A program made the translations under genes and the position numbers. Shown here in pieces: positions 1,395 to 33,001 of a DNA stretch of 33,001 nt; positions within the stretch are counted from its first letter, which is position 1; each line of letters starts with the position of its first letter. This DNA comes from Candidatus Omnitrophota bacterium (lineage in GTDB: Bacteria > Omnitrophota > Gorgyraeia > Gygaellales > Profunditerraquicolaceae): the NCBI GenBank assembly GCA_903882345.1, contig CAIRWO010000149.1:1-33001 (forward strand), read 5' to 3'. The notes under the pieces were generated by a model, which was not told the origin of the DNA, searched no databases, and worked only from the letters and a program-made list of their open reading frames with translations.

Positions 1395-3938
1395 ATGGAT
1401 GAAAAACGGTTATATTTAATTGATGCTACTGCTTTTTGCTACAGGGCGTTTTATGCCTTAAAAGGGCTTTCTACGTCTTTTGGCCAGCCGACAAACGCGA
1501 TCTACGGCTTTCTTAATATGCTGAATAAGATCATAAAAGAAAAGAAACCCTATTATCTTGCAGCCTGTTTTGATGTTTCCCGGGATACCTTCCGGTTAAA
1601 GAAATTTACTGAATACAAGATCCAGCGGCCCCCGATGCCCGACGGACTAACTAGTCAGATCCCCTTGATCAAAAAACTGATTTCTGCTTACGGTATAAGC
1701 ATACTGGAGAAAGAAGGTTTTGAGGCAGATGATGTCATCGCCACAATGTCCGCAAAGGCAAAAGAGGCCGGCGTAGCCGTGACTATCGTCAGTTCCGATA
1801 AAGACGTTTTGCAACTGGTTGATGAAAACACGGTAGTTTTTAATCCTTATAAGGAAAAAGGCGTTATCCTTGATGTTAAAGGCGTAGAGGAATTTTTCGG
1901 CGTCGGCCCCGGCCAGGTAAGCGACGTTATTGCGCTGATGGGTGACAGTGTTGATAATATACCGGGCTGCCGCGGCATCGGTGAAAAAACGGCAGTAGAA
2001 TTGATCAAGGACTTTGGCAGCGTAGAAAACCTGCTTAGTAATGCCGACCGGATAAAGCAGGCAAAGGTAAAAGAGGCAATAAACTCCTCTGTCGATATTA
2101 TTAAGCTGAGCAAAGAACTGGCGCTGCTTGATAGCAAGGTTGATATAGGCTTTGACTTGGAAGGTCTCAAACCCAAGCAAGCCGATAGCAAAGAATTGTT
2201 CCGGCTTTTTAAGTATCTTGAGTTTAAGAAGCTGCTCAAAGACTTGCCGGTCCTGGATGATACGCCGGAGCAAGAAGCAGAAATTGTCTGTCTGGAGGAT
2301 AATGATTTGAAAGGCAAGTTGAGCGTAGGCGATGAGTTGTTTTTGTTTGGAGATTCCTGCGAAACCCTGGTTTTTTTTGCTAACGGTATTTTCTTTCGTC
2401 TTAAGTCCTTTGGTAAGAATGCCTCCGGTATTTTTTCGGACACTTGCATTAAAAAGATAGGCCACGATCTTAAGAAGATAAGGGTAGCGTTGGCTGGCCA
2501 GGGGATCACGTTAGGCGGAATGCATTTTGACACAATGGTCGCCGGATACCTTGTTAATCCCTCAGGCGCAGGATTTTCCCTTGCCGATTTGGCGCTGGAA
2601 TATTTGGACAGCCCCCCGCCGCTAGAGGCCCTTAACAACAGTAAGGGACTTAGCCTGCTATTACGGCTCAGGCCTGCGTTTGAAAAGATGCTTTCCGAGA
2701 GATCATTGACAAAACTTTTTTACGATACTGAAATGCCGCTGGTAGAAGTCTTGGCACGGATGGAGTTGAACGGGATCAAAGTCGATTTAAACATATTGCA
2801 GCGTCTCTCCAAGGACCTGGAGAAGAGGCTGATCTATTTGATCGATGAAATATACTCGGCCAGCGGAACGCAATTCAACATAAATTCACCAAAACAGTTG
2901 AGCCAGGTCTTATTTGAAAAACTGAAATTACCGGTAGTCAAAAGGAGTAAGACCGGACCCTCAACTGACGAAGAGGTGCTTAAAAAATTGGCACCGTCGC
3001 ACCCTTTGCCCGCTCTTTTATTAGAATATCGTCAATTAATGAAACTTAAAACCACGTATGTGGACACGCTGCCGGAATTGGTAGATCCCAAAACGGGCAG
3101 GATCCATACCTCTTTTAATCAGACGGCAACCGAAACGGGCAGGCTTAGTTCCAGTAACCCCAATTTACAGAATTTACCTATCAAGACAGAGATAGGCAGC
3201 AGGATCAGACAGGCGATCGTGGCTTCAGGGGACGGCTACCATATCCTTGCCTGCGATTATTCACAGATAGAATTAAGGATACTGGCGCATATATCCGCAG
3301 ATGAGAATTTGATCAGGGCGTTTAAAAACAACCAGGACATTCATAAGGCTACGGCGGCATTGATCTATGGGCTGGAAGAGAAAGACGTAACTGACCAGAT
3401 GAGAGAGACCGCAAAAAGAGTGAATTTTGGGATTGTTTACGGACTTACATCTTATGGGCTTTCCAAGGATCTGAACATACCGCTAGATGAAGCAGGGGCT
3501 TTCATTGACGCGTATTTTATCCGTTATCCGAAGGTCAGGGGTTACATGGAGGATCAGATCCAAAAGGCGGAAAAGGACGGCTTTGTTACGACGATCCTGG
3601 GCCGGCGCAGGTATATCCCTGAAATCAACAACAAGAATCAGGGGATCCGGCAGTTTGCCCAGCGTAAGGCGATCAATACTCCTATCCAGGGCTCGGCCAG
3701 CGATCTGATAAAATTGGCGATGATTGAAATACACAACCAGATAAATGCGAAGCAACTTGATTCCAAAATGGTGCTCCAGGTCCACGATGAGCTGGTATTT
3801 GATGTACCGGAAAAAGAGCAAGATGATTTTGCAGCAATGGTAAAAGAGCGGATGGAAAATGTCCTGCAGCTTAACGTGCCCATACGGGTGAGCGTTAAGC
3901 AGGGCAGAAACTGGCTGGAAGCGGAGGAAGCCAAATGA
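1395..3938 (+). CDS. polA: DNA polymerase I
   Basis: The 847-aa product has a 5' nuclease domain (LIDATAFCYRAFYA, GIGEKTA). It also has family A polymerase motifs (DYSQIELRILAH, RRxAKxxNFGIVYG, QVHDELVF). Confidence 0.95.
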   Translation: MDEKRLYLIDATAFCYRAFYALKGLSTSFGQPTNAIYGFLNMLNKIIKEKKPYYLAACFDVSRDTFRLKKFTEYKIQRPPMPDGLTSQIPLIKKLISAYGISILEKEGFEADDVIATMSAKAKEAGVAVTIVSSDKDVLQLVDENTVVFNPYKEKGVILDVKGVEEFFGVGPGQVSDVIALMGDSVDNIPGCRGIGEKTAVELIKDFGSVENLLSNADRIKQAKVKEAINSSVDIIKLSKELALLDSKVDIGFDLEGLKPKQADSKELFRLFKYLEFKKLLKDLPVLDDTPEQEAEIVCLEDNDLKGKLSVGDELFLFGDSCETLVFFANGIFFRLKSFGKNASGIFSDTCIKKIGHDLKKIRVALAGQGITLGGMHFDTMVAGYLVNPSGAGFSLADLALEYLDSPPPLEALNNSKGLSLLLRLRPAFEKMLSERSLTKLFYDTEMPLVEVLARMELNGIKVDLNILQRLSKDLEKRLIYLIDEIYSASGTQFNINSPKQLSQVLFEKLKLPVVKRSKTGPSTDEEVLKKLAPSHPLPALLLEYRQLMKLKTTYVDTLPELVDPKTGRIHTSFNQTATETGRLSSSNPNLQNLPIKTEIGSRIRQAIVASGDGYHILACDYSQIELRILAHISADENLIRAFKNNQDIHKATAALIYGLEEKDVTDQMRETAKRVNFGIVYGLTSYGLSKDLNIPLDEAGAFIDAYFIRYPKVRGYMEDQIQKAEKDGFVTTILGRRRYIPEINNKNQGIRQFAQRKAINTPIQGSASDLIKLAMIEIHNQINAKQLDSKMVLQVHDELVFDVPEKEQDDFAAMVKERMENVLQLNVPIRVSVKQGRNWLEAEEAK

Positions 3939-7123: not shown

Positions 7124-7125
7124 AG

Positions 7126-7172
7126 ACACCCGAACCTATAGGATGGTTCGGTGTGCGTTTACTACGCAAGGA
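7126..7172 (+). repeat. Two-hairpin intercistronic element, copy A (rho-rpmE spacer)
   Basis: Hairpin 1 is ACACCCGAACC-TATAGGAT-GGTTCGGTGT. Hairpin 2 is TGCGT-TTACT-ACGCA. The element ends in AAGGA, which is the rpmE SD. The first 31 nt are identical to the copy at 24144. Confidence 0.75.
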
Positions 7173-7180
7173 GGTTTCAA

Positions 7181-8474: not shown

Positions 8475-9255
8475 GGCAGAGCTGCTTTTCAGCAGTGTTC
8501 TAAATTGCAACCGGATGTCTTTGTATCTGGATAGACAGAGGCTCCTGACAAATGATGAATCTGAGGCTATTGCCCTAGCTTTGAAGAGAAGGATTGCCGG
8601 AGAGCCGCTTGAGTACATATTGGCTAGCACAGAATTTATGGGCCTTGAGTTTAAGCTAAGCCCGGATGTGCTTATCCCGCGGCCGGAAACGGAGATACTC
8701 GTTGAGACGGTGATTAGGCAAGCCAGGGCAGCTGATAATGCAAAAATCCTTGATTTAGGCACGGGCTCAGGATGTATTGCCGTATCTCTGGCGAAGTTCA
8801 TTTCGGACTCAAAGATTACGGCAACCGATATCTCGGTTAAGGCGCTGGAGATTGCCGCGGCTAATGCGGGGTTTCACAACGTTAAGATAAATTTTCTCTG
8901 TAGTGATTTATTTACAAGTCTTTCTTTGTCGCAATATAAATATGATATTATCGTATCAAATCCTCCATATATAGTAACTGAGGAAATCTGGCAACTGCAG
9001 CCGGAATTGCAATACGAACCGCTGGTTGCCTTAGACGCAGGTCCTGACGGTTTGGAGTTTTATCGCCGCATCATTGATAAGGCGCCGGATCATCTGGAGA
9101 AGGGCGGGTTTCTGGTTATGGAGATGGGGTTTGGCCAGCGCAAAGCAGTAGAAAATATTTTTAAAAAATCAAAAAAATTTGAGATAATAGAAATAGTCGC
9201 GGATTATAACGGTATAGACAGGGTGATCGTAGCGAGGAGACAGACAGGTGGATAA
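8467..9255 (+). CDS. prmC: Release-factor glutamine N5-methyltransferase
   Basis: It has a SAM-binding LDLGTGSGCIA motif and the NPPY motif (IVSNPPYI). It lies immediately downstream of prfA and overlaps it. Confidence 0.9.
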   Translation: MNEAELLFSSVLNCNRMSLYLDRQRLLTNDESEAIALALKRRIAGEPLEYILASTEFMGLEFKLSPDVLIPRPETEILVETVIRQARAADNAKILDLGTGSGCIAVSLAKFISDSKITATDISVKALEIAAANAGFHNVKINFLCSDLFTSLSLSQYKYDIIVSNPPYIVTEEIWQLQPELQYEPLVALDAGPDGLEFYRRIIDKAPDHLEKGGFLVMEMGFGQRKAVENIFKKSKKFEIIEIVADYNGIDRVIVARRQTGG

Positions 9256-12869: not shown

Positions 12870-13511
12870 ATGGCAAAAGTAAAAATATGCGGCATAACCA
12901 ATTCAGAAGATGCGTTGTTTTCAGCAGGATCCGGCTGCGATGCGCTGGGTTTTGTTTTTTATAAAAAGAGCCCCCGTTATATCCCCCCTGAAAAAGCCGC
13001 ACAAATAATCAAAGGATTACCTGCGGAGCTGATCAAGATCGGCGTATTCGTCAATTCCCGGGAAAAGACTATAAGACGGATCGCGCAATTGTGCGGGCTT
13101 GATACCTTACAGTTTCACGGCTCAGAATCTCCGGAATTCTGCCGCAGGTTCAAAGACAAAAAAATTATCAAGGCGTTCAGGGTAAAAGATAGATCGAGCC
13201 TGAAAAGTATCTTAAAATACAAAGTCTTTGCTTTCCTTTTTGACACTTTTAGCCGATCCCGCATCGGCGGCACGGGGAAAAAATTTAATTGGGAACTGGT
13301 TAGGCACATTGACGGCATAACGCGGCCGATATTCTTATCCGGCGGCTTAAATGAAAAAAATGTCAGAGGCGCGATCAAGGCGGTGCATCCGGATTGGGTT
13401 GACGCGTCCAGCTCTCTGGAGGTTTCTCCCGGCAGGAAAGACCAGAATAAAGTAAAAAAGTTTATCGTCGCCGCGAAGAAAGGTAAGAGCAAGAGGACCG
13501 TTTCCTTATAA
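12870..13511 (+). CDS. trpF: Phosphoribosylanthranilate isomerase
   Basis: KVKICGIT, LGFVFYKKSPRYI and LSGGL are present. The last six sense codons plus the stop lie within the left arm of the 19-bp inverted repeat. Confidence 0.85.
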   Translation: MAKVKICGITNSEDALFSAGSGCDALGFVFYKKSPRYIPPEKAAQIIKGLPAELIKIGVFVNSREKTIRRIAQLCGLDTLQFHGSESPEFCRRFKDKKIIKAFRVKDRSSLKSILKYKVFAFLFDTFSRSRIGGTGKKFNWELVRHIDGITRPIFLSGGLNEKNVRGAIKAVHPDWVDASSSLEVSPGRKDQNKVKKFIVAAKKGKSKRTVSL

Positions 13512-13660
13512 CTGTATACGTAGTAATGAGTTTTGTAGGAACTGTCCCTGGGGGACATTTCTAAAATAATCTTTTTATGTTAGTAGAGTAACTTAATAGG
13601 GAGGGGGGACAGTTCCATAGGAACTTATTGTTATTTAATGGGTTATAAGGAAACGGTCCT
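13494..13660. repeat. Perfect 19-bp inverted repeats (AGGACCGTTTCCTTATAAC at 13494-13512, its complement at 13642-13660) enclosing a 129-nt AT-rich core with nested inverted repeats
   Basis: I read this directly from the sequence. The nested 11-bp pair is GGAACTGTCCC (13538-13548) and GGGACAGTTCC (13606-13616). Competing local hairpins are TGTCCC-TGG-GGGACA and GTTCC-ATA-GGAAC. Confidence 0.7.
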
Positions 13661-23691: not shown

Positions 23692-25396
23692 AAACATACT
23701 GATCCTCGTCGTACTGACTTATTTTTTCTTTTGTTTTGGTAACGGCATAATCAGCCTTAGCAATCCGGATGAAGTTTTTTATGCCGGCACGGCAAAAGAG
23801 ATGATCAACCAGCACAGCTGGATGACGCCTTATTTATTCGGCCAGCCGCAATTTGAAAAGCCGGTATTTTTATACTGGATGCTGCGGATCGCCTTTATGA
23901 TTTTCGGTATTGGAAGTTTTGCCGGCCGTTTCTTTCCGGCAGTATTCGCTTCCCTGGGGGTAGTTGCGGTTTACCTTTTCTCGCTGATAGCATTCAAGGA
24001 TGAAAAGAAGGCATTCTTTACCGGCTTGGTTTTGATGTCCTCAGGGCTCTATATCGGGCTGGCGCGGACAATTTTTACGGATATGATTTTTTCCGTATTT
24101 ATCCTTTTATCGCTGCTAGCGTTTTTCTGGGGGTATGCGCGGGCACCCGAACCTATAGGATGGTTCGGTGTGCGCTTGTTGCGCAAGGAAAAGAAGGCCG
24201 GCGGTATCCTCTTATTTTTTGTTTTTTCCGCTTTAGCGGTCTTGACCAAGGGGCCGCTGGGATTTTTTATCCCGTTTATGGCGATAGTGATTTTTCTTGC
24301 GCTAAAGAAAGAGCTGAAATTTATCTTTTCGAAAGCAACGCTGTGGGGTCTGTTGGTTTTTATTCTGATCGCTTTTCCCTGGTACCTGCTGATGATCAAA
24401 AAATACGGCTCTAGCTTTACCCACGAGTTTTTTTATAATGACCACATCCGCCGGATATTCGAGGCAGAACATAGTTCAAACGACACTTGGCATTTTTATC
24501 CTTTCGCAATGGTTTGGGCGATGTTCCCCTGGAGCGCGTTTGTAGTTATTTCCCTGCTCGGCCTGTATAAGCATATAAGGAAGGCAGGGGAGCCAGTCTA
24601 CCTTTTTCTTGCCTCTTGGATTGCCGCAGTCTTTCTTATTTTTCAACCCTGCCATTCTAAGCTGGTAAGCTACATCTTCCCGATGTTTCCCGCGCTGGCC
24701 ATACTTAGCGCCGACCTTATTTATCGCGGGGCAGCGCAAAATCAAAGGCCACGCCTTGTATTTTCCGCTTTTTTGCTCACGGTATTGGCGCTTGTTGTTT
24801 CATACGTTGGCTTGGCCGTGGGTTCGGTTTTATTTTCCCGCTATATTACGACGTATTTGCCGAACAAGCTGCCGGTTTATATTTTATTAGCTCTGCTTTT
24901 TATCTTGGTCATACTGTGTTCGGTTTTTATCGCGTGCCGCAGGCTGCTGAAAACGGCCTGCGTATTGATGCTTTTTATCCCCGTGCTTTTTTCTATCGTG
25001 CCCCAGGTCAGCAAATATATCGATCCCTACCTTTCATCGCGTGATATCTGCCGCTACCTTCAGGATAATTATAAGCTCGACAATACGATATTGGTCTCTA
25101 AATTTTTTACCCGCGGGGTAAGATATTATACGGAAAAAAAAGTAGCGGTAATCGACATCCCGGGAAATGGTTTTTTTAGCCCGCACCCCATAGCTTTTCT
25201 TAATTCCGACAGTAAGGTCCTGGATCTTTTACGCCGGCAGCCGGTTACATATTGCGTCCTTAAGAAAACGGCGCTACAGGATATCCAACGTTTCAGCAAT
25301 GAATTTGACTATAAGGTCTTGAAGGTCATCGGCAACGAGTATTTAGTCAGGATCAAGCCGAGAACATTGACAATAGCGGGAAGGGGAGTAGAATAA
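23642..25396 (+). CDS. Glycosyltransferase family 39 (ArnT / PMT_2-like lipid-linked sugar transferase)
   Basis: PDEVFYAGTAKEMINQHSWMTPYLFGQPQFEKPVFLYW resembles the ArnT N-terminal loop. The product has more than 10 TM segments. The start is TTG 23642 or ATG 23648, both overlapping the Nudix gene. It contains repeat copy B in frame. Confidence 0.8.
   Translation: MSMQRLSVRLRCAGGCKNILILVVLTYFFFCFGNGIISLSNPDEVFYAGTAKEMINQHSWMTPYLFGQPQFEKPVFLYWMLRIAFMIFGIGSFAGRFFPAVFASLGVVAVYLFSLIAFKDEKKAFFTGLVLMSSGLYIGLARTIFTDMIFSVFILLSLLAFFWGYARAPEPIGWFGVRLLRKEKKAGGILLFFVFSALAVLTKGPLGFFIPFMAIVIFLALKKELKFIFSKATLWGLLVFILIAFPWYLLMIKKYGSSFTHEFFYNDHIRRIFEAEHSSNDTWHFYPFAMVWAMFPWSAFVVISLLGLYKHIRKAGEPVYLFLASWIAAVFLIFQPCHSKLVSYIFPMFPALAILSADLIYRGAAQNQRPRLVFSAFLLTVLALVVSYVGLAVGSVLFSRYITTYLPNKLPVYILLALLFILVILCSVFIACRRLLKTACVLMLFIPVLFSIVPQVSKYIDPYLSSRDICRYLQDNYKLDNTILVSKFFTRGVRYYTEKKVAVIDIPGNGFFSPHPIAFLNSDSKVLDLLRRQPVTYCVLKKTALQDIQRFSNEFDYKVLKVIGNEYLVRIKPRTLTIAGRGVE
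24143..24189 (+). repeat. Two-hairpin element, copy B, embedded in frame in the GT39 CDS
   Basis: CACCCGAACCTATAGGATGGTTCGGTGTGCG is identical to copy A. Hairpin 2 is TGCGC-TTGTT-GCGCA, followed by AAGGA. The element translates as ...[16 protein letters not shown].... Confidence 0.75.
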
Positions 25397-30100: not shown

Positions 30101-30109
30101 GTGCCTTAT

Positions 30110-30238
30110 ACATGCTTAATCCCTTAACAGGGAGCGGGGGAACCAGGAGCAGGATTTCAATAATCTTGGGGCGGATATCCGGTAATTGCGGATTAAGGTT
30201 ACTCAACCTGAGCCCGACAGCTAACCTCGTAAGCTCAT
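30110..30238 (+). promoter_or_regulatory. c-di-AMP riboswitch aptamer (ydaO/yuaA class)
   Basis: From memory of the ydaO consensus, it has GCTTAATC (30114-21), GGGAGCGGGGGAACC (30130-44), TTGGGGCGGATATCC (30166-80) and CCCGACAGCTAACCTCGTAAGC (30213-34). P1 forms as GCTTA/TAAGC. It lies upstream of a K+ transporter operon. Confidence 0.8.
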
Positions 30239-30251
30239 AACAAGAGAATAC

Positions 30252-30283
30252 ACCAGAGAAAGTGTTCTCTGGTTTTCTTTTAG
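30252..30283 (+). terminator. Intrinsic terminator (expression platform of the riboswitch)
   Basis: A 9-bp stem ACCAGAGAA / TTCTCTGGT with loop AGTG is followed by TTTCTTTT. Confidence 0.75.
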
Positions 30284-30320
30284 TGAAAAAGACGCCAATC
30301 CATCCTATAGGATTGGGTGT
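30274..30320 (-). repeat. Two-hairpin element, copy E, inverted orientation
   Basis: The minus strand reads ACACCCAATCC-TATAGGAT-GGATTGGCGT, then CTTTT-TCACT-AAAAG. The loop and the ACACCC are conserved and the 5-bp variable stem is fully swapped. There is no AAGGA and no downstream gene on the minus strand. Confidence 0.5.
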
Positions 30321-30350
30321 CTATTAGGTTAGGTGTATTTGACATTAAAT

Positions 30351-30440
30351 ATGAAAGAAAAAGTATATTGGATGGGAGTTATTGTTTGCGCTATACTAAT
30401 ACTATATCTTTCTATTAGTTTTTGCCTGATTCGCCATTAA
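30351..30440 (+). CDS. Small hydrophobic ORF (29 aa), KdpF-like: MKEKVYWMGVIVCAILILYLSISFCLIRH
   Basis: It is a single TM helix and shares the pattern YW-G-I----L--YL-I with the adjacent kdpF product. It has no clear SD and falls below the length cutoff of the ORF track. Confidence 0.4.
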   Translation: MKEKVYWMGVIVCAILILYLSISFCLIRH

Positions 30441-30476: not shown

Positions 30477-30557
30477 ATGGACATTTTAATAATAGCAATA
30501 ATACTTATTATTACACTAGCTTCTTTTGCTTTTATTACCCTTTGCTCTAAGGTCTAA
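30477..30557 (+). CDS. Small hydrophobic ORF (26 aa): MDILIIAIILIITLASFAFITLCSKV
   Basis: GAGG lies 5 nt upstream of the ATG. The product is a single TM helix. The final A of its TAA stop is the first base of repeat copy C. Confidence 0.45.
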   Translation: MDILIIAIILIITLASFAFITLCSKV

Positions 30558-30603
30558 CACCCGAACCTATCGGATGGTTCGGTGTCCATAATCTATGGAA
30601 GGA
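30557..30603 (+). repeat. Two-hairpin element, copy C (spacer before kdpF)
   Basis: Hairpin 1 is ACACCCGAACC-TATCGGAT-GGTTCGGTGT. Hairpin 2 is TCCATA-ATC-TATGGA. The element ends in AAGGA, 8 nt before the kdpF ATG. Confidence 0.75.
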
Positions 30604-30611
30604 ATCTTATA

Positions 30612-30701
30612 ATGATTATTTATTGGATCGGCGGAATTATTTCTTTTCTCCTGTTTATTTATCTCTTAATAGCCCTTTTAAAACCGGAGATTTTCTCGTG
30701 A
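30612..30701 (+). CDS. kdpF: K+-transporting ATPase subunit F (29 aa): MIIYWIGGIISFLLFIYLLIALLKPEIFS
   Basis: Its size, single TM helix and ...YLLxALLxPExF ending are typical of KdpF. Its stop overlaps the kdpA GTG (GTGA). Confidence 0.75.
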   Translation: MIIYWIGGIISFLLFIYLLIALLKPEIFS

Positions 30702-32443
30702 ATTTGAACAATTTTATCCAAATATCTATTTATTTAGCGACATTGCTTCTTTTGGTTAAGCCATTGGGCACTTATATGGCGCGAGTCTATGAAGGCAAGC
30801 CTAGCGGTTTAAATGTTTGGTTCGGCTGGTTAGAGAAGCTGATCTATCGGCTTATAGGAACTAATTCTCAACAAGAGATGTCTTGGAAGACCTATGCAGT
30901 GGCAGCGATGTTGTTCAATATAATAGGTATAATTATAGTATATGCCATTCAGCGCCTTCAAGCGCACCTTCCTTTAAATCCGATGTCTATGCCGGCAGTA
31001 AGCGCAGACCTTTCGTTCAATACGGCTGTCAGTTTTGCTACCAATACAAACTGGCAGAGTTATGGCGGAGAGACTACCTTAAGTTATTTTACCCAGATGA
31101 TAGGTTTAACCGTGCAAAATTTTGTTTCCGCGGCAACAGGAATGGCGGTTTTGGTGGCTTCTATCAGAGGATTTATCCAAAAGCAGGCAGAAACGATCGG
31201 CAATTTCTGGGTAGACTTGGTCAGGTCAACGCTTTATATCCTGCTGCCGCTTTCTTTAATTCTGTCCTTAGTATTAGTATCACAGGGCGTGGTGCAAACT
31301 TTTAAGCCAAGCGCAAAGGTTGATCTGTTGCAATCGACAAAAGACTCTAGCGGGAAAATAATTTCCCAGCAGGAAATTGCTTTGGGCCCGGCTGCATCGC
31401 AGATAGCTATTAAACAGTTAGGGACAAACGGAGGAGGGTTCTTTAACGTTAATTCTGCTCATCCTTTCGAGAATCCTACGCCTTTATCAAACTTTCTAGA
31501 AGTGCTGGCGATAGTCCTGATAGGTGCTGCTTTATGTTATACGTTCGGCTATATGGTTAAGGATAAACGCCAGGGGTGGGCATTATTGATTGCTATGCTG
31601 ATTATTTTTATTCCCTGTCTTTGGACGTGTGTCCATTTTGAGCAAAAAGGCAACCCTTTGTTTAAGAACCTTGGCGTTGATCAAAGTTATTCGGCAACGC
31701 AACCAGGCGGGAACATGGAAGGAAAAGAAGCGCGTTTCGGAATCGCGAATTCCGCCATCTGGGCCGCAGCTACTACTGCGGCTTCCAACGGTTCAGTGAA
31801 TTCAATGCATGATTCCTATATGCCTCTGGGTGGTTTAATTCCCCTGTGGCTTATACAATTAGGCGAAGTTGTTTTTGGAGGAGTAGGTTCAGGACTTTAT
31901 GGTATGCTTGCGTTTGTGATTGTCGCTGTTTTTATTTCCGGGCTGATGATCGGCAGGACTCCCGAATACCTGGGAAAGAAAATCGAAAGCTTTGAAATGA
32001 AGATGGCGGCGCTTATTCTTTTGATCCCGCATATATGTGTGCTTTTAGGAACAGCAATCGCGGTTGTCTTACCCAAAGCAAAGGCGGCAATCTTAAACCC
32101 CGGAGCGCATGGTTTTAGCGAAGTGCTGTATGCCTTTACTTCTGCCGGAAACAATAACGGCAGCGCGTTTGCCGGTTTATCAAGTAATACATTTTTTTAT
32201 AATATTGCCTTAGGTTTAGCAATGTTTTTTTCAAGATACTGGCTTATTATACCAATGCTGGCGATTGCCGGTTCGCTTTCTAAGAAAAAGATCGTGCCGG
32301 CGAGCGTAGGAACGCTGCCTACGCATACGCCGCTTTTTATCATATTTTTAGTGATGGTTGTTTTGATTGTCGGAGCGCTTACATTTTTTCCGGCCTTGTC
32401 TTTGGGGCCGATTGTCGAACATCTTATGTTACGCGGGGGTTAA
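30698..32443 (+). CDS. kdpA: K+-transporting ATPase subunit A
   Basis: VKPLGTYMARVYEG, NWQSYGGE, LGTNGGGFF and TSAGNNNGSAFAG are KdpA selectivity-filter-like regions. I prefer the GTG at 30698 over the track ATG at 30623, which runs through kdpF. Confidence 0.92.
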   Translation: MNLNNFIQISIYLATLLLLVKPLGTYMARVYEGKPSGLNVWFGWLEKLIYRLIGTNSQQEMSWKTYAVAAMLFNIIGIIIVYAIQRLQAHLPLNPMSMPAVSADLSFNTAVSFATNTNWQSYGGETTLSYFTQMIGLTVQNFVSAATGMAVLVASIRGFIQKQAETIGNFWVDLVRSTLYILLPLSLILSLVLVSQGVVQTFKPSAKVDLLQSTKDSSGKIISQQEIALGPAASQIAIKQLGTNGGGFFNVNSAHPFENPTPLSNFLEVLAIVLIGAALCYTFGYMVKDKRQGWALLIAMLIIFIPCLWTCVHFEQKGNPLFKNLGVDQSYSATQPGGNMEGKEARFGIANSAIWAAATTAASNGSVNSMHDSYMPLGGLIPLWLIQLGEVVFGGVGSGLYGMLAFVIVAVFISGLMIGRTPEYLGKKIESFEMKMAALILLIPHICVLLGTAIAVVLPKAKAAILNPGAHGFSEVLYAFTSAGNNNGSAFAGLSSNTFFYNIALGLAMFFSRYWLIIPMLAIAGSLSKKKIVPASVGTLPTHTPLFIIFLVMVVLIVGALTFFPALSLGPIVEHLMLRGG

Positions 32444-32491
32444 CACCCCGCGCTTATCGGATTTGCGCGGGTGTGCCCTTCTGGGCAAGGA
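32443..32491 (+). repeat. Two-hairpin element, copy D (kdpA-kdpB spacer), the most diverged copy
   Basis: Hairpin 1 is ACACCCCGCGC-TTATCGGATTT-GCGCGGGTGT. Hairpin 2 is TGCCC-TTCT-GGGCA. The element ends in AAGGA, 6 nt before the kdpB ATG, and starts on the last A of the kdpA TAA. Confidence 0.65.
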
Positions 32492-32497
32492 CTATCC

Positions 32498-33001
32498 ATG
32501 AGTAAGTTGCATAAAGCAAAATCTTTATTTGACTCTTCTATCGCCAGGGTAGCGGCTATTGATTCGCTAAGGAAATTAAATCCCGGACATCAGATCAAAA
32601 ACCCCGTGATGTTTGTGGTATTGGTAGGTAGTATTTTAACCACTGGATTATATATCCAGGCATTAACCGGCCATGGCGAAACCAAAGCCAGTTTTATTTT
32701 ATCCATAACCTTATGGTTATGGTTTACTTTGATTTTTGCTAACTTTGCCGAAGCTATGGCTGAGGGTAGGGGAAAGGCGCAAGCTGAAAGCTTGAAAAAG
32801 GCGCGTAAAGATACTCTTGCCAAAAAACTTTCAAAAGCCGAATACGGATTAGATTATGAAAAGATATCCGCCTCAATGCTGCGAAAAGGAGATATTGTCC
32901 TTGCTGAAGCGGGCGATATCATACCCATGGACGGAGAAGTTATCGAGGGCGTGGCAAGCGTTGATGAGAGCGCGATTACCGGAGAGAGCGCGCCTGTTAT
33001 A
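32498..33001 (+). CDS. kdpB: K+-transporting P-type ATPase subunit B, 5' part (runs off the window)
   Basis: It translates as [14 protein letters not shown]...[15 protein letters not shown]...[21 protein letters not shown]...[30 protein letters not shown], which closely matches the KdpB N-terminus. It is absent from the ORF track because no stop falls within the window. Confidence 0.92.

Follow-up and report, generated by a model that had tools for sequence, protein, structure and literature searches.

The DNA considered herein, referred to as the window, is a stretch of 33,001 nt that corresponds to contig C149 of a Candidatus Omnitrophota genome (labelled G000; assembly of 1.25 Mb in 218 contigs). 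The genes kdpA and, up to the window end, the 5' part of kdpB lie at its right-hand side, and between the two stands a two-hairpin element, termed copy D. An earlier note on this DNA had presented copy D as a diverged relative of three further elements of the window (copies A, B and C), and had suggested that it could set the KdpA:KdpB stoichiometry or serve as an mRNA processing site. The comparisons reported below indicate that copy D probably belongs to a distinct and abundant branch of a short insertional repeat that docks on Shine-Dalgarno (SD) motifs. These comparisons cover 204 genomes (98 genera) of the taxonomic family of the host, hereafter the family genomes, which are designated by G numbers; G001 is of the same genus as G000.

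The element at the kdpA-kdpB junction

Copy D is oriented in the sense direction of the operon and fills a spacer of 54 nt between the kdpA stop and the kdpB start (Table 1). Hairpin 1 is formed by the 5' arm ACACCCCGCGC, the loop TTATCGGATTT and the 3' arm GCGCGGGTGT with one unpaired C, and it combines a foot (ACACC/GGTGT) with an inner stem (CGCGC/GCGCG). Hairpin 2 follows, the motif AAGGA abuts it, and the kdpB ATG comes 6 nt further on, just as the earlier note had described. The translation of this gene is 74-83% identical to kdpB of 11 other family genomes. The pattern ACACCC-N10-30-GGTGT occurs four times in the window, compared with 0.02 expected occurrences. Folded alone, the 56-nt region of copy D gives exactly two hairpins and leaves the SD free (-25 kcal/mol, z = -3.4), and none of 200 shuffled sequences folds as stably. 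In an 81-nt context, the minimum-energy structure is a different one, in which the 5' arm of hairpin 1 (CCCCGCG) is taken up by the last codons of kdpA (CGCGGGG). The alternative pairing (32432-32452) competes with hairpin 1 in G000 only, and it is treated as chance because neither of the other two filled junctions allows it.

The kinship of copy D was scored with two covariance models. Model R1, built from 17 genomic copies without copy D and its closest look-alike, gave 37.8 bits (E = 4.8e-7). Model R2, built from copies A-C only as in the test that the earlier note had named, gave 35.5 bits (E about 1e-7) against a best background match of 12.6 bits, which bears out the proposed membership of copy D in the same element family. 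The frame ACACCC...GGTGT, the single bulged C and the GGA-containing loop are likewise retained despite a different stem. That all five stem pairs are swapped was an overstatement: relative to the GAACC/GGTTC stem of copies A-C, both partners have changed in four of the five inner pairs, and the loop-proximal C-G pair is the same.

The description of copy D as a diverged A-C-like copy has to be abandoned, as its CGCGC stem and 10-11-nt loop define a separate, abundant subfamily. The D-type pattern (CACCCCGCGC-N6-16-GCGCGGGTG) was found in 97 of the 204 family genomes and in 40 of the 98 genera, with up to 27 copies per genome, and the number of D-type copies ranges from 0 to 27 among the genomes of a single genus (labelled g24); the canonical type with an 8-nt loop occurs in 93 family genomes from 64 genera, and reversed-pattern controls returned 0 matches. 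Among D-type variants within two mismatches, inspection by eye, without a count, showed changes chiefly in the loop and seldom in the stems, and the loop TTATCGGATTT was also found with other, compensated stems. The loop variant was rejected as a signature of the locus, given D-type copies with TGAT loops at unrelated loci and the occurrence of this loop on other stems. The host itself has a second D-type copy, located upstream of argH on contig C81.

The junction was then placed in a comparative frame by searching all family genomes for kdpB and by aligning window positions 31798-33001 with loci L082-L096 (alignment A3). Only 12 of the 204 genomes have kdpB, and it is missing from the same-genus G001. 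In nine of the 12 operons the kdpA-kdpB junction lacks the element and is at most 13 nt long or overlapping, so the structured 54-nt spacer is indeed unusual. These empty junctions read TAA-T-ATG (G064, G003) or TAA-TC/TT-ATG (G021, G108), overlap as TAATG (G109) or ATGA (G047), or hold an 8-12-nt spacer with an SD (G113, G062, G203). The remaining three operons (G000, G105, G010) are filled with a D-type element. Over the 31 nt from position 32444, hairpin 1 is identical between G000 and G105 (31/31), and in G010 it is identical with one extra C; hairpin 2 reads GCCCTTGTGGGC in G105, with one loop base different from G000, and has lost its 3' arm in G010. The SD spacers past the element resemble those of the empty relatives of each lineage (G105 resembles G062, and G010 resembles G113). 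At the level of sequence, these comparisons show that the element was placed between the kdpA stop and the kdpB SD, and that a short junction thereby became a structured spacer of 54 nt.

The history of the three filled operons is not that of a clade. Their flanking genes agree at no more than 45-54% of third codon positions, and approximately unbiased (AU) tests reject their grouping for the concatenated flanks (p = 6e-6), kdpA (9e-5) and kdpB (2e-8). The idea that the kdp copy arose only once on the gene tree was rejected by these tests. Gains and losses of this copy cannot be counted because the kdpA and kdpB trees disagree. The tree of the kdpA 3' part unites G000 with G113 (support 95/92), while that of the kdpB 5' part gives (G113, (G010, G109)) at 100/99 and leaves G000 alone. 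In addition, the kdpA 3' end of G000 matches G021 and G113 at 85-93% identity over most windows of 60 nt, and at the kdpB 5' end G000 reaches only about 73% identity with any other operon. Since the two trees are discordant and pairwise identity drops sharply at the junction, the kdp operons of the family are recombinant mosaics with an apparent breakpoint at or near the kdpA/kdpB boundary.

Copies of the repeat and their position before Shine-Dalgarno motifs

When the whole assembly was searched for repeats and scanned with a regular expression, many copies of a common design emerged: CACCC, a variable stem arm of 5 nt, TAWMGGAT, the complementary arm, GGTGT, a short second hairpin, AAGGAGG and a start codon. 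The unit itself, consisting of hairpin 1 and hairpin 2, measures about 42-45 nt. In hairpin 1, the CACCC/GGTGT foot is conserved, one C is extrahelical, the 5-bp inner stem covaries freely and the loop contains GGA; hairpin 2 has a 4-5-bp stem with a TTNCT-like loop. Model R1 matches the 1.25-Mb host genome 34 times, and 23 of these 34 copies have a start codon and an open reading frame (ORF) within 30 nt downstream; most of the others are inner units of nested copies. In the set of 17 copies used for R1, 98.7% of cells are paired and eight pairs have changed on both sides, a result equalled by none of 500 shuffles. Furthermore, 150 listed copies of the canonical type yielded 58 distinct inner stems, in which 263 of 290 pairs (91%) are Watson-Crick. 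On the sense strand of these stems, G-U pairs outnumber A-C combinations by 11 to 3 (one-sided binomial p about 0.03), and this excess is a weak sign that the sense strand is the one that folds.

Comparison of filled and empty sites located the boundaries of the insertion. Eight filled sites of G001 could be matched in G000, of which three are filled in both genomes, four are clearly empty in G000 and one is ambiguous. The empty sites already hold an SD (GGGAGG, GGAGAG, AGGGAGG and AAAGGAG), and therefore the element does not bring the SD but lands 0-2 nt before it. The alternative of an SD that forms part of the element was rejected from these site pairs and from the empty kdp and copy B sites, and the AAGGA of copy D, which is the pre-existing SD of kdpB, falls outside the inserted 42-45 nt. 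Copy B provides a further case within a gene. Its 584-codon host ORF contains an exact 14-codon insertion (GCACCC...TTGCGC) relative to the 71%-identical orthologue at locus L017, as seen from the BLASTP gap and the DNA of the empty site, and the element is present in none of the 47 orthologue loci. A 42-nt unit is likewise nested in the loop of another copy (TATAGG^AT) in G000, while the orthologous G001 copy lacks it. On its 3' side the unit always borders on a run of purines resembling an SD (AAGGA, GAGGAGG, AGGAGG; GG^AT in loops), which is a candidate target. Judged from these sequence pairs, the unit is shown to be inserted in the sense of the downstream gene, apparently 0-2 nt upstream of a pre-existing purine-rich SD.

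The repeat is restricted mainly to one family of Candidatus Omnitrophota. A phylum scan of 401 genomes with R1 gave 53 positives, including 44 in the family of the host, one in another family of the same order and eight in three other families of the class. Among 24 other sampled family genomes, each from a different genus, 21 contained R1 matches.

Several arrangements of copies were recorded alongside this census. Composite copies of about 95 nt occur at least eight times in the host (contigs C87, C31, C12, C170, C54, C153, C215, C206 and C9), with an inner unit of CACCTTGCC..GGCAAGTGT plus CCCGCCTACTGCGGG, or of CACCCCAACA.., inside the loop of the outer copy, and the same composite is present at least three times in G001. 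Head-to-tail D-type arrays with a period of about 46-49 nt were seen at G168:C32:3736-3863, G061:C60:27-225 and G020:C6 (locus L115); successive units of the G020 array have the mutually compensated stems CGCGC, GGCGC and CACGC. At locus L120 (G197:C112:828-998), a D-type copy abuts the 5' end of a tRNA gene and not an SD. On the short contig G014:C72, two identical D-type hairpins lie inverted and 6.6 kb apart (2163-2192, minus strand; 8786-8815, plus strand) and may bracket a larger segment.

Table 1. Features of the window around the kdp junction, further copies of the repeat and other elements
Feature	Position in window	Strand	Remarks
kdpA stop codon TAA	32441-32443	+	ORF 30623-32443; hairpin 1 begins with the last A
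Hairpin 1 of copy D	32443-32474	+	Pattern match, covariance-model alignment, fold
Hairpin 2 of copy D	32475-32486	+	GCCCTTCTGGGC, GCCC-TTCT-GGGC; fold; 3' end of inserted unit
Native kdpB SD (AAGGA) and 6-nt spacer CTATCC	32487-32497 (AAGGA 32487-32491)	+	Outside the element
kdpB, 5' part	32498-33001 (ATG 32498-32500)	+	168 codons, continues past window end; translation comparison
Copy A	7125-7174	+	Upstream of rpmE-like gene (ATG 7183); R1 78.4 bits
Copy B	24143-24184	+	42-nt (14-codon) in-frame insertion in a GT39-type membrane glycosyltransferase, directly 5' of AAGGAA
Copy C	30556-30605	+	Between 26-codon ORF and kdpF (ATG 30612); R1 67.9 bits
Inverted, partly decayed copy	30274-30321	-	Just past riboswitch terminator; R1 40.7 bits
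c-di-AMP (ydaO-type) riboswitch	30103-30283		RF00379, 83.9 bits
Small hydrophobic ORF 1	30351-30440		29 codons
Small hydrophobic ORF 2	30477-30557		26 codons
kdpF	30612-30701		Sequence MIIYWIGGIISFLLFIYLLIALLKPEIFS
kdpA start	near 30698		Overlaps kdpF stop
Palindromic element	13494-13660		167 nt

Upstream of the junction, the kdp operon is headed by the riboswitch, which is followed by a terminator-like hairpin and a T-run, and two small hydrophobic ORFs lie between it and kdpF. Both ORFs are conserved in G105 (locus L122), the second almost residue for residue (MDILIIAIILI.TL.SF.FI.LCSKV). G105 also has an inverted copy of the repeat at the same relative place as the inverted copy of the window. 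The ATG past copy C is the start of kdpF and not that of kdpA. Elsewhere in the window, the 167-nt palindromic element has 55-nt inverted-repeat arms that are 75% complementary and 57 nt apart, and it is unrelated to the two-hairpin repeat.

Known repeat systems and candidate enzymes

The Omnitrophota repeat resembles several known systems, and the defining features of each of the nearest ones are missing from it. The closest likeness is to the repetitive extragenic palindromes (REP/BIME/REPIN) of Enterobacteria and Pseudomonas, which are mobilised by RAYT Y1 enzymes. These are also imperfect palindromes of 20-45 nt in tens to hundreds of copies (here 34 in the genome and hundreds in the family), lie between co-transcribed genes, carry a bulged stem base, and form clusters and tandem arrays. 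Conservation far beyond that of neutral DNA, transcribed hairpins able to act beside stop codons, and a RAYT-like gene in the genome complete the similarity. In contrast to REPs, the Omnitrophota repeat has no GTAG-type 5' tag, and alignments show the CACCC...GGTGT foot in its place; its unit consists of two unlike hairpins, and nearly every copy is docked in sense orientation with 0-2 nt between it and a downstream SD. Most REPs, on the other hand, come after genes. Furthermore, no RAYT gene flanked by copies of the repeat was found. The RAYT-like Y1 gene of the host (contig C203:1585-2148), which is cut by the contig end, matches NF047646 with 74.6 bits, below the curated cut-off of 80.

Miniature elements derived from IS200/IS605 (PATEs), which move by peel-and-paste, share hairpin-defined ends, no visible target-site duplication, an apparent insertion beside a short specific motif, strand-specific orientation and seemingly exact presence/absence differences. 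However, the Omnitrophota repeat is far shorter than known members, its two hairpins are unlike, and its apparent target is an SD-like purine run. Classical MITEs (miniature transposable elements with inverted repeats) differ by the terminal inverted repeats and consistent target-site duplication that the Omnitrophota repeat lacks. Rickettsia palindromic elements (RPEs) recall copy B, which is in frame and adds 14 residues to a loop of a membrane protein; insertion in frame into genes is named as the hallmark of RPEs in a passage of PMC10969869. RPEs, however, measure about 100-150 bp, are mostly intragenic and belong to a different lineage, and in the Omnitrophota repeat a copy in frame is exceptional. 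Mycobacterial interspersed repetitive units (MIRUs) and ERIC/Correia-type MITEs are also small co-transcribed repeats in operon gaps, some of which alter mRNA stability or the translation of a neighbour, but MIRUs are direct tandem repeats overlapping stop and start codons, and ERIC/Correia elements have terminal inverted repeats and TA duplications. Neither from PMC10969869 nor otherwise do we know of a MIRU, ERIC or Correia element reported to dock on an SD in a single orientation, although this was not checked exhaustively. Integron attC sites were excluded on sequence by the absence of GTTRRRY/RYYYAAC boxes.

Searches for known families and partners gave few leads. Rfam found only the c-di-AMP riboswitch in the window, and permissive scans of copies D and A gave nothing better than E = 3, so a known RNA family was rejected at both gathering and permissive thresholds. 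A CsrA-binding module, with one GGA in the loop and one in the SD, was considered and rejected, as CsrA (PF02599) is absent from all 61 family genomes searched, with positive controls. A full-text literature search found no paper on such repeats in Omnitrophota. A motif scan came up empty, and so did a search of G000 for longer forms of the element that carry an ORF. Genes of the Y1_Tnp type are present in 47 of 61 family genomes searched, the host included. Small GIY-YIG ORFs are common in the order, and G000 has only a UvrC-type gene. By analogy, the anatomy of the element matches what single-strand HUH/Y1 enzymes would recognise, since foot and loop are conserved, one base is extrahelical, the stem covaries freely, no duplication was seen, and the copies share one orientation and an apparent short target at their flank.

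Competing explanations and significance

Altogether, copy D is probably a CGCGC-subfamily copy of a 42-45-nt two-hairpin repeat that is insertional, SD-docking, REP-like and co-transcribed with kdp. It is not a kdp-specific device, and a role designed for KdpA:KdpB stoichiometry is for that reason not indicated. The repeat would spread as single-stranded DNA through a sequence- and structure-specific enzyme leaving no target duplication, in the style of HUH/Y1 or RAYT-like enzymes, and hairpin formation would be required for its maintenance. Within the kdpFABC mRNA, the transcribed element would separate kdpB initiation from kdpA termination, with loss of stop-start coupling, and kdpB would depend on its own AAGGA. 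As with some E. coli REPs, a stable hairpin would also stand directly against the kdpA stop, and the terminating ribosome would have to melt it. Ribosome stalling and lowered translation are reported for E. coli REPs that lie no more than 15 nt from a stop codon (PMC12306157, citing its ref. 17). An effect of copy D on kdpA/kdpB coupling is plausible, and a generic RNA effect through uncoupled translation, 3'/5' hairpin protection or processing would be possible; these effects would be generic to the repeat family and not tailored to kdp.

Several observations weigh against this interpretation, both on the side of the enzyme and on that of the copies. No element copy lies in the upstream flank of the Y1 gene on contig C203, whose 3' flank ends with the contig. 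In relatives, listed elements do not adjoin the Y1 genes, and genomes with more Y1 genes do not consistently have more copies: G007 and G016 have three Y1 genes and no elements, and G003, G008, G017 and G023 have elements and no Y1 gene. The link to RAYT was rejected on the grounds of this lack of adjacency and correlation. A link to GIY-YIG enzymes was rejected as well, as only two of 20 small GIY-YIG loci have an element within 1.5 kb, both more than 1.3 kb away, and G000 lacks the small type. Neither a consistent target duplication across the filled/empty pairs nor terminal inverted repeats were seen, the ends being two different hairpins. As for the copies, they do not decay like junk. Hairpin 1 is near-identical in three non-sister kdp operons despite diverged third positions, and 31 identical bases would have a probability of about 0.54^31 = 6e-9 if orthologous and neutral. 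The copy upstream of argH is identical at 55 of 58 positions between two genera, argH itself being about 60% identical by eye. Copy C recurs in G105 with the same unusual hairpin 2 (CCATAATCTATGG, 13/13) and two compensated pairs in hairpin 1. This conservation points to selection on individual copies or to horizontal exchange, neither of which a purely selfish model predicts. Individual copies look constrained or recently exchanged, while sites turn over between close relatives.

A rival idea, essentially that of the earlier note, is that selection maintains copy D as a cis-acting RNA module of the kdp mRNA, irrespective of how the family arose. Hairpin 1 would protect the 3' end of kdpFA or stall the terminating ribosome, and hairpin 2 would cap the 5' end of kdpBC and present the SD, so as to set KdpA/KdpB output or mark a processing site. 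The identity of hairpin 1 across operons with saturated synonymous sites, the orthologous copy C with its compensated pairs, the conserved argH copy, the excess of G-U over A-C, the necessarily sense transcription of all copies and the stalling reported for stop-proximal REPs of E. coli all favour such a module. Nevertheless, we regard it as doubtful, as the nine kdp operons without the element include the nearest relatives of each filled one, and the same repeat also occurs in front of unrelated genes, within an ORF, nested in other copies and beside a tRNA gene. KdpFABC is thought to assemble 1:1:1:1, and differential output would then have no obvious benefit. The strong conservation of the kdp copy keeps a functional role open and lends some support to a putative generic RNA effect. 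In a further scenario, the repeat is both mobile and functional: a self-spreading "operon punctuation" cassette would home to SD motifs as single-stranded DNA, its RNA would supply a 3' hairpin at the stop of the upstream cistron as well as a 5' hairpin, with the SD left free, to the downstream one, and single copies would come under strong host-level selection. This combination would explain the base-for-base identity of hairpin 1 in three non-sister kdp operons, and we hold it to be unlikely but worth stating.

Horizontal exchange offers another account of the three kdp copies, in which the element or a short tract was moved by recombination and the junction is a breakpoint and not a selected site. 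It agrees with the discordant kdpA and kdpB trees, with the step in identity between the two ends in G000, and with the patchy occurrence of kdp in the family down to its absence from G001. However, the immediate flanks are no more alike between filled operons, the last kdpA codons and the SD spacers differ, and both putative parental lineages of the G010 mosaic are empty, which leaves exchange as a decidedly improbable account. The near-palindromic hairpin 1, which matches the search pattern on both strands, could also be a double-stranded DNA operator or a chance GC-rich palindrome unrelated to the other copies. Covariance-model scores far above background and the D-type census in 97 of the 204 genomes refute this idea. 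The existence of hundreds of homologous copies, and the free but compensated variation of their stems, which would be incompatible with a duplex operator, reduce its probability to almost nothing.

What this analysis adds is the assignment of copy D to a subfamily, a survey of the kdp junctions, the finding that the kdp copy is the same in non-sister operons, the apparent junction breakpoint, the main restriction of the repeat to one family, and the negative tests for CsrA, RAYT adjacency and GIY-YIG. To our knowledge, no mobile repeat has been reported to target the ribosome-binding site. If the favoured interpretation of copy D as an SD-docking repeat is true, gene starts across a whole Omnitrophota family would have been remodelled by a tiny element that recognises this site. 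Annotators and RNA-motif hunters would be warned that "conserved structured leaders" in this phylum may mostly be copies of the repeat. The filled kdp operons would constitute natural experiments in which a translationally coupled kdpA/kdpB junction has been pulled 54 nt apart by two hairpins. Finally, the rapid gain and loss of sites together with near-perfect retained copies would revive, in a lineage without experimental knowledge, the question posed by REPs of whether such repeats are selfish, useful or both.

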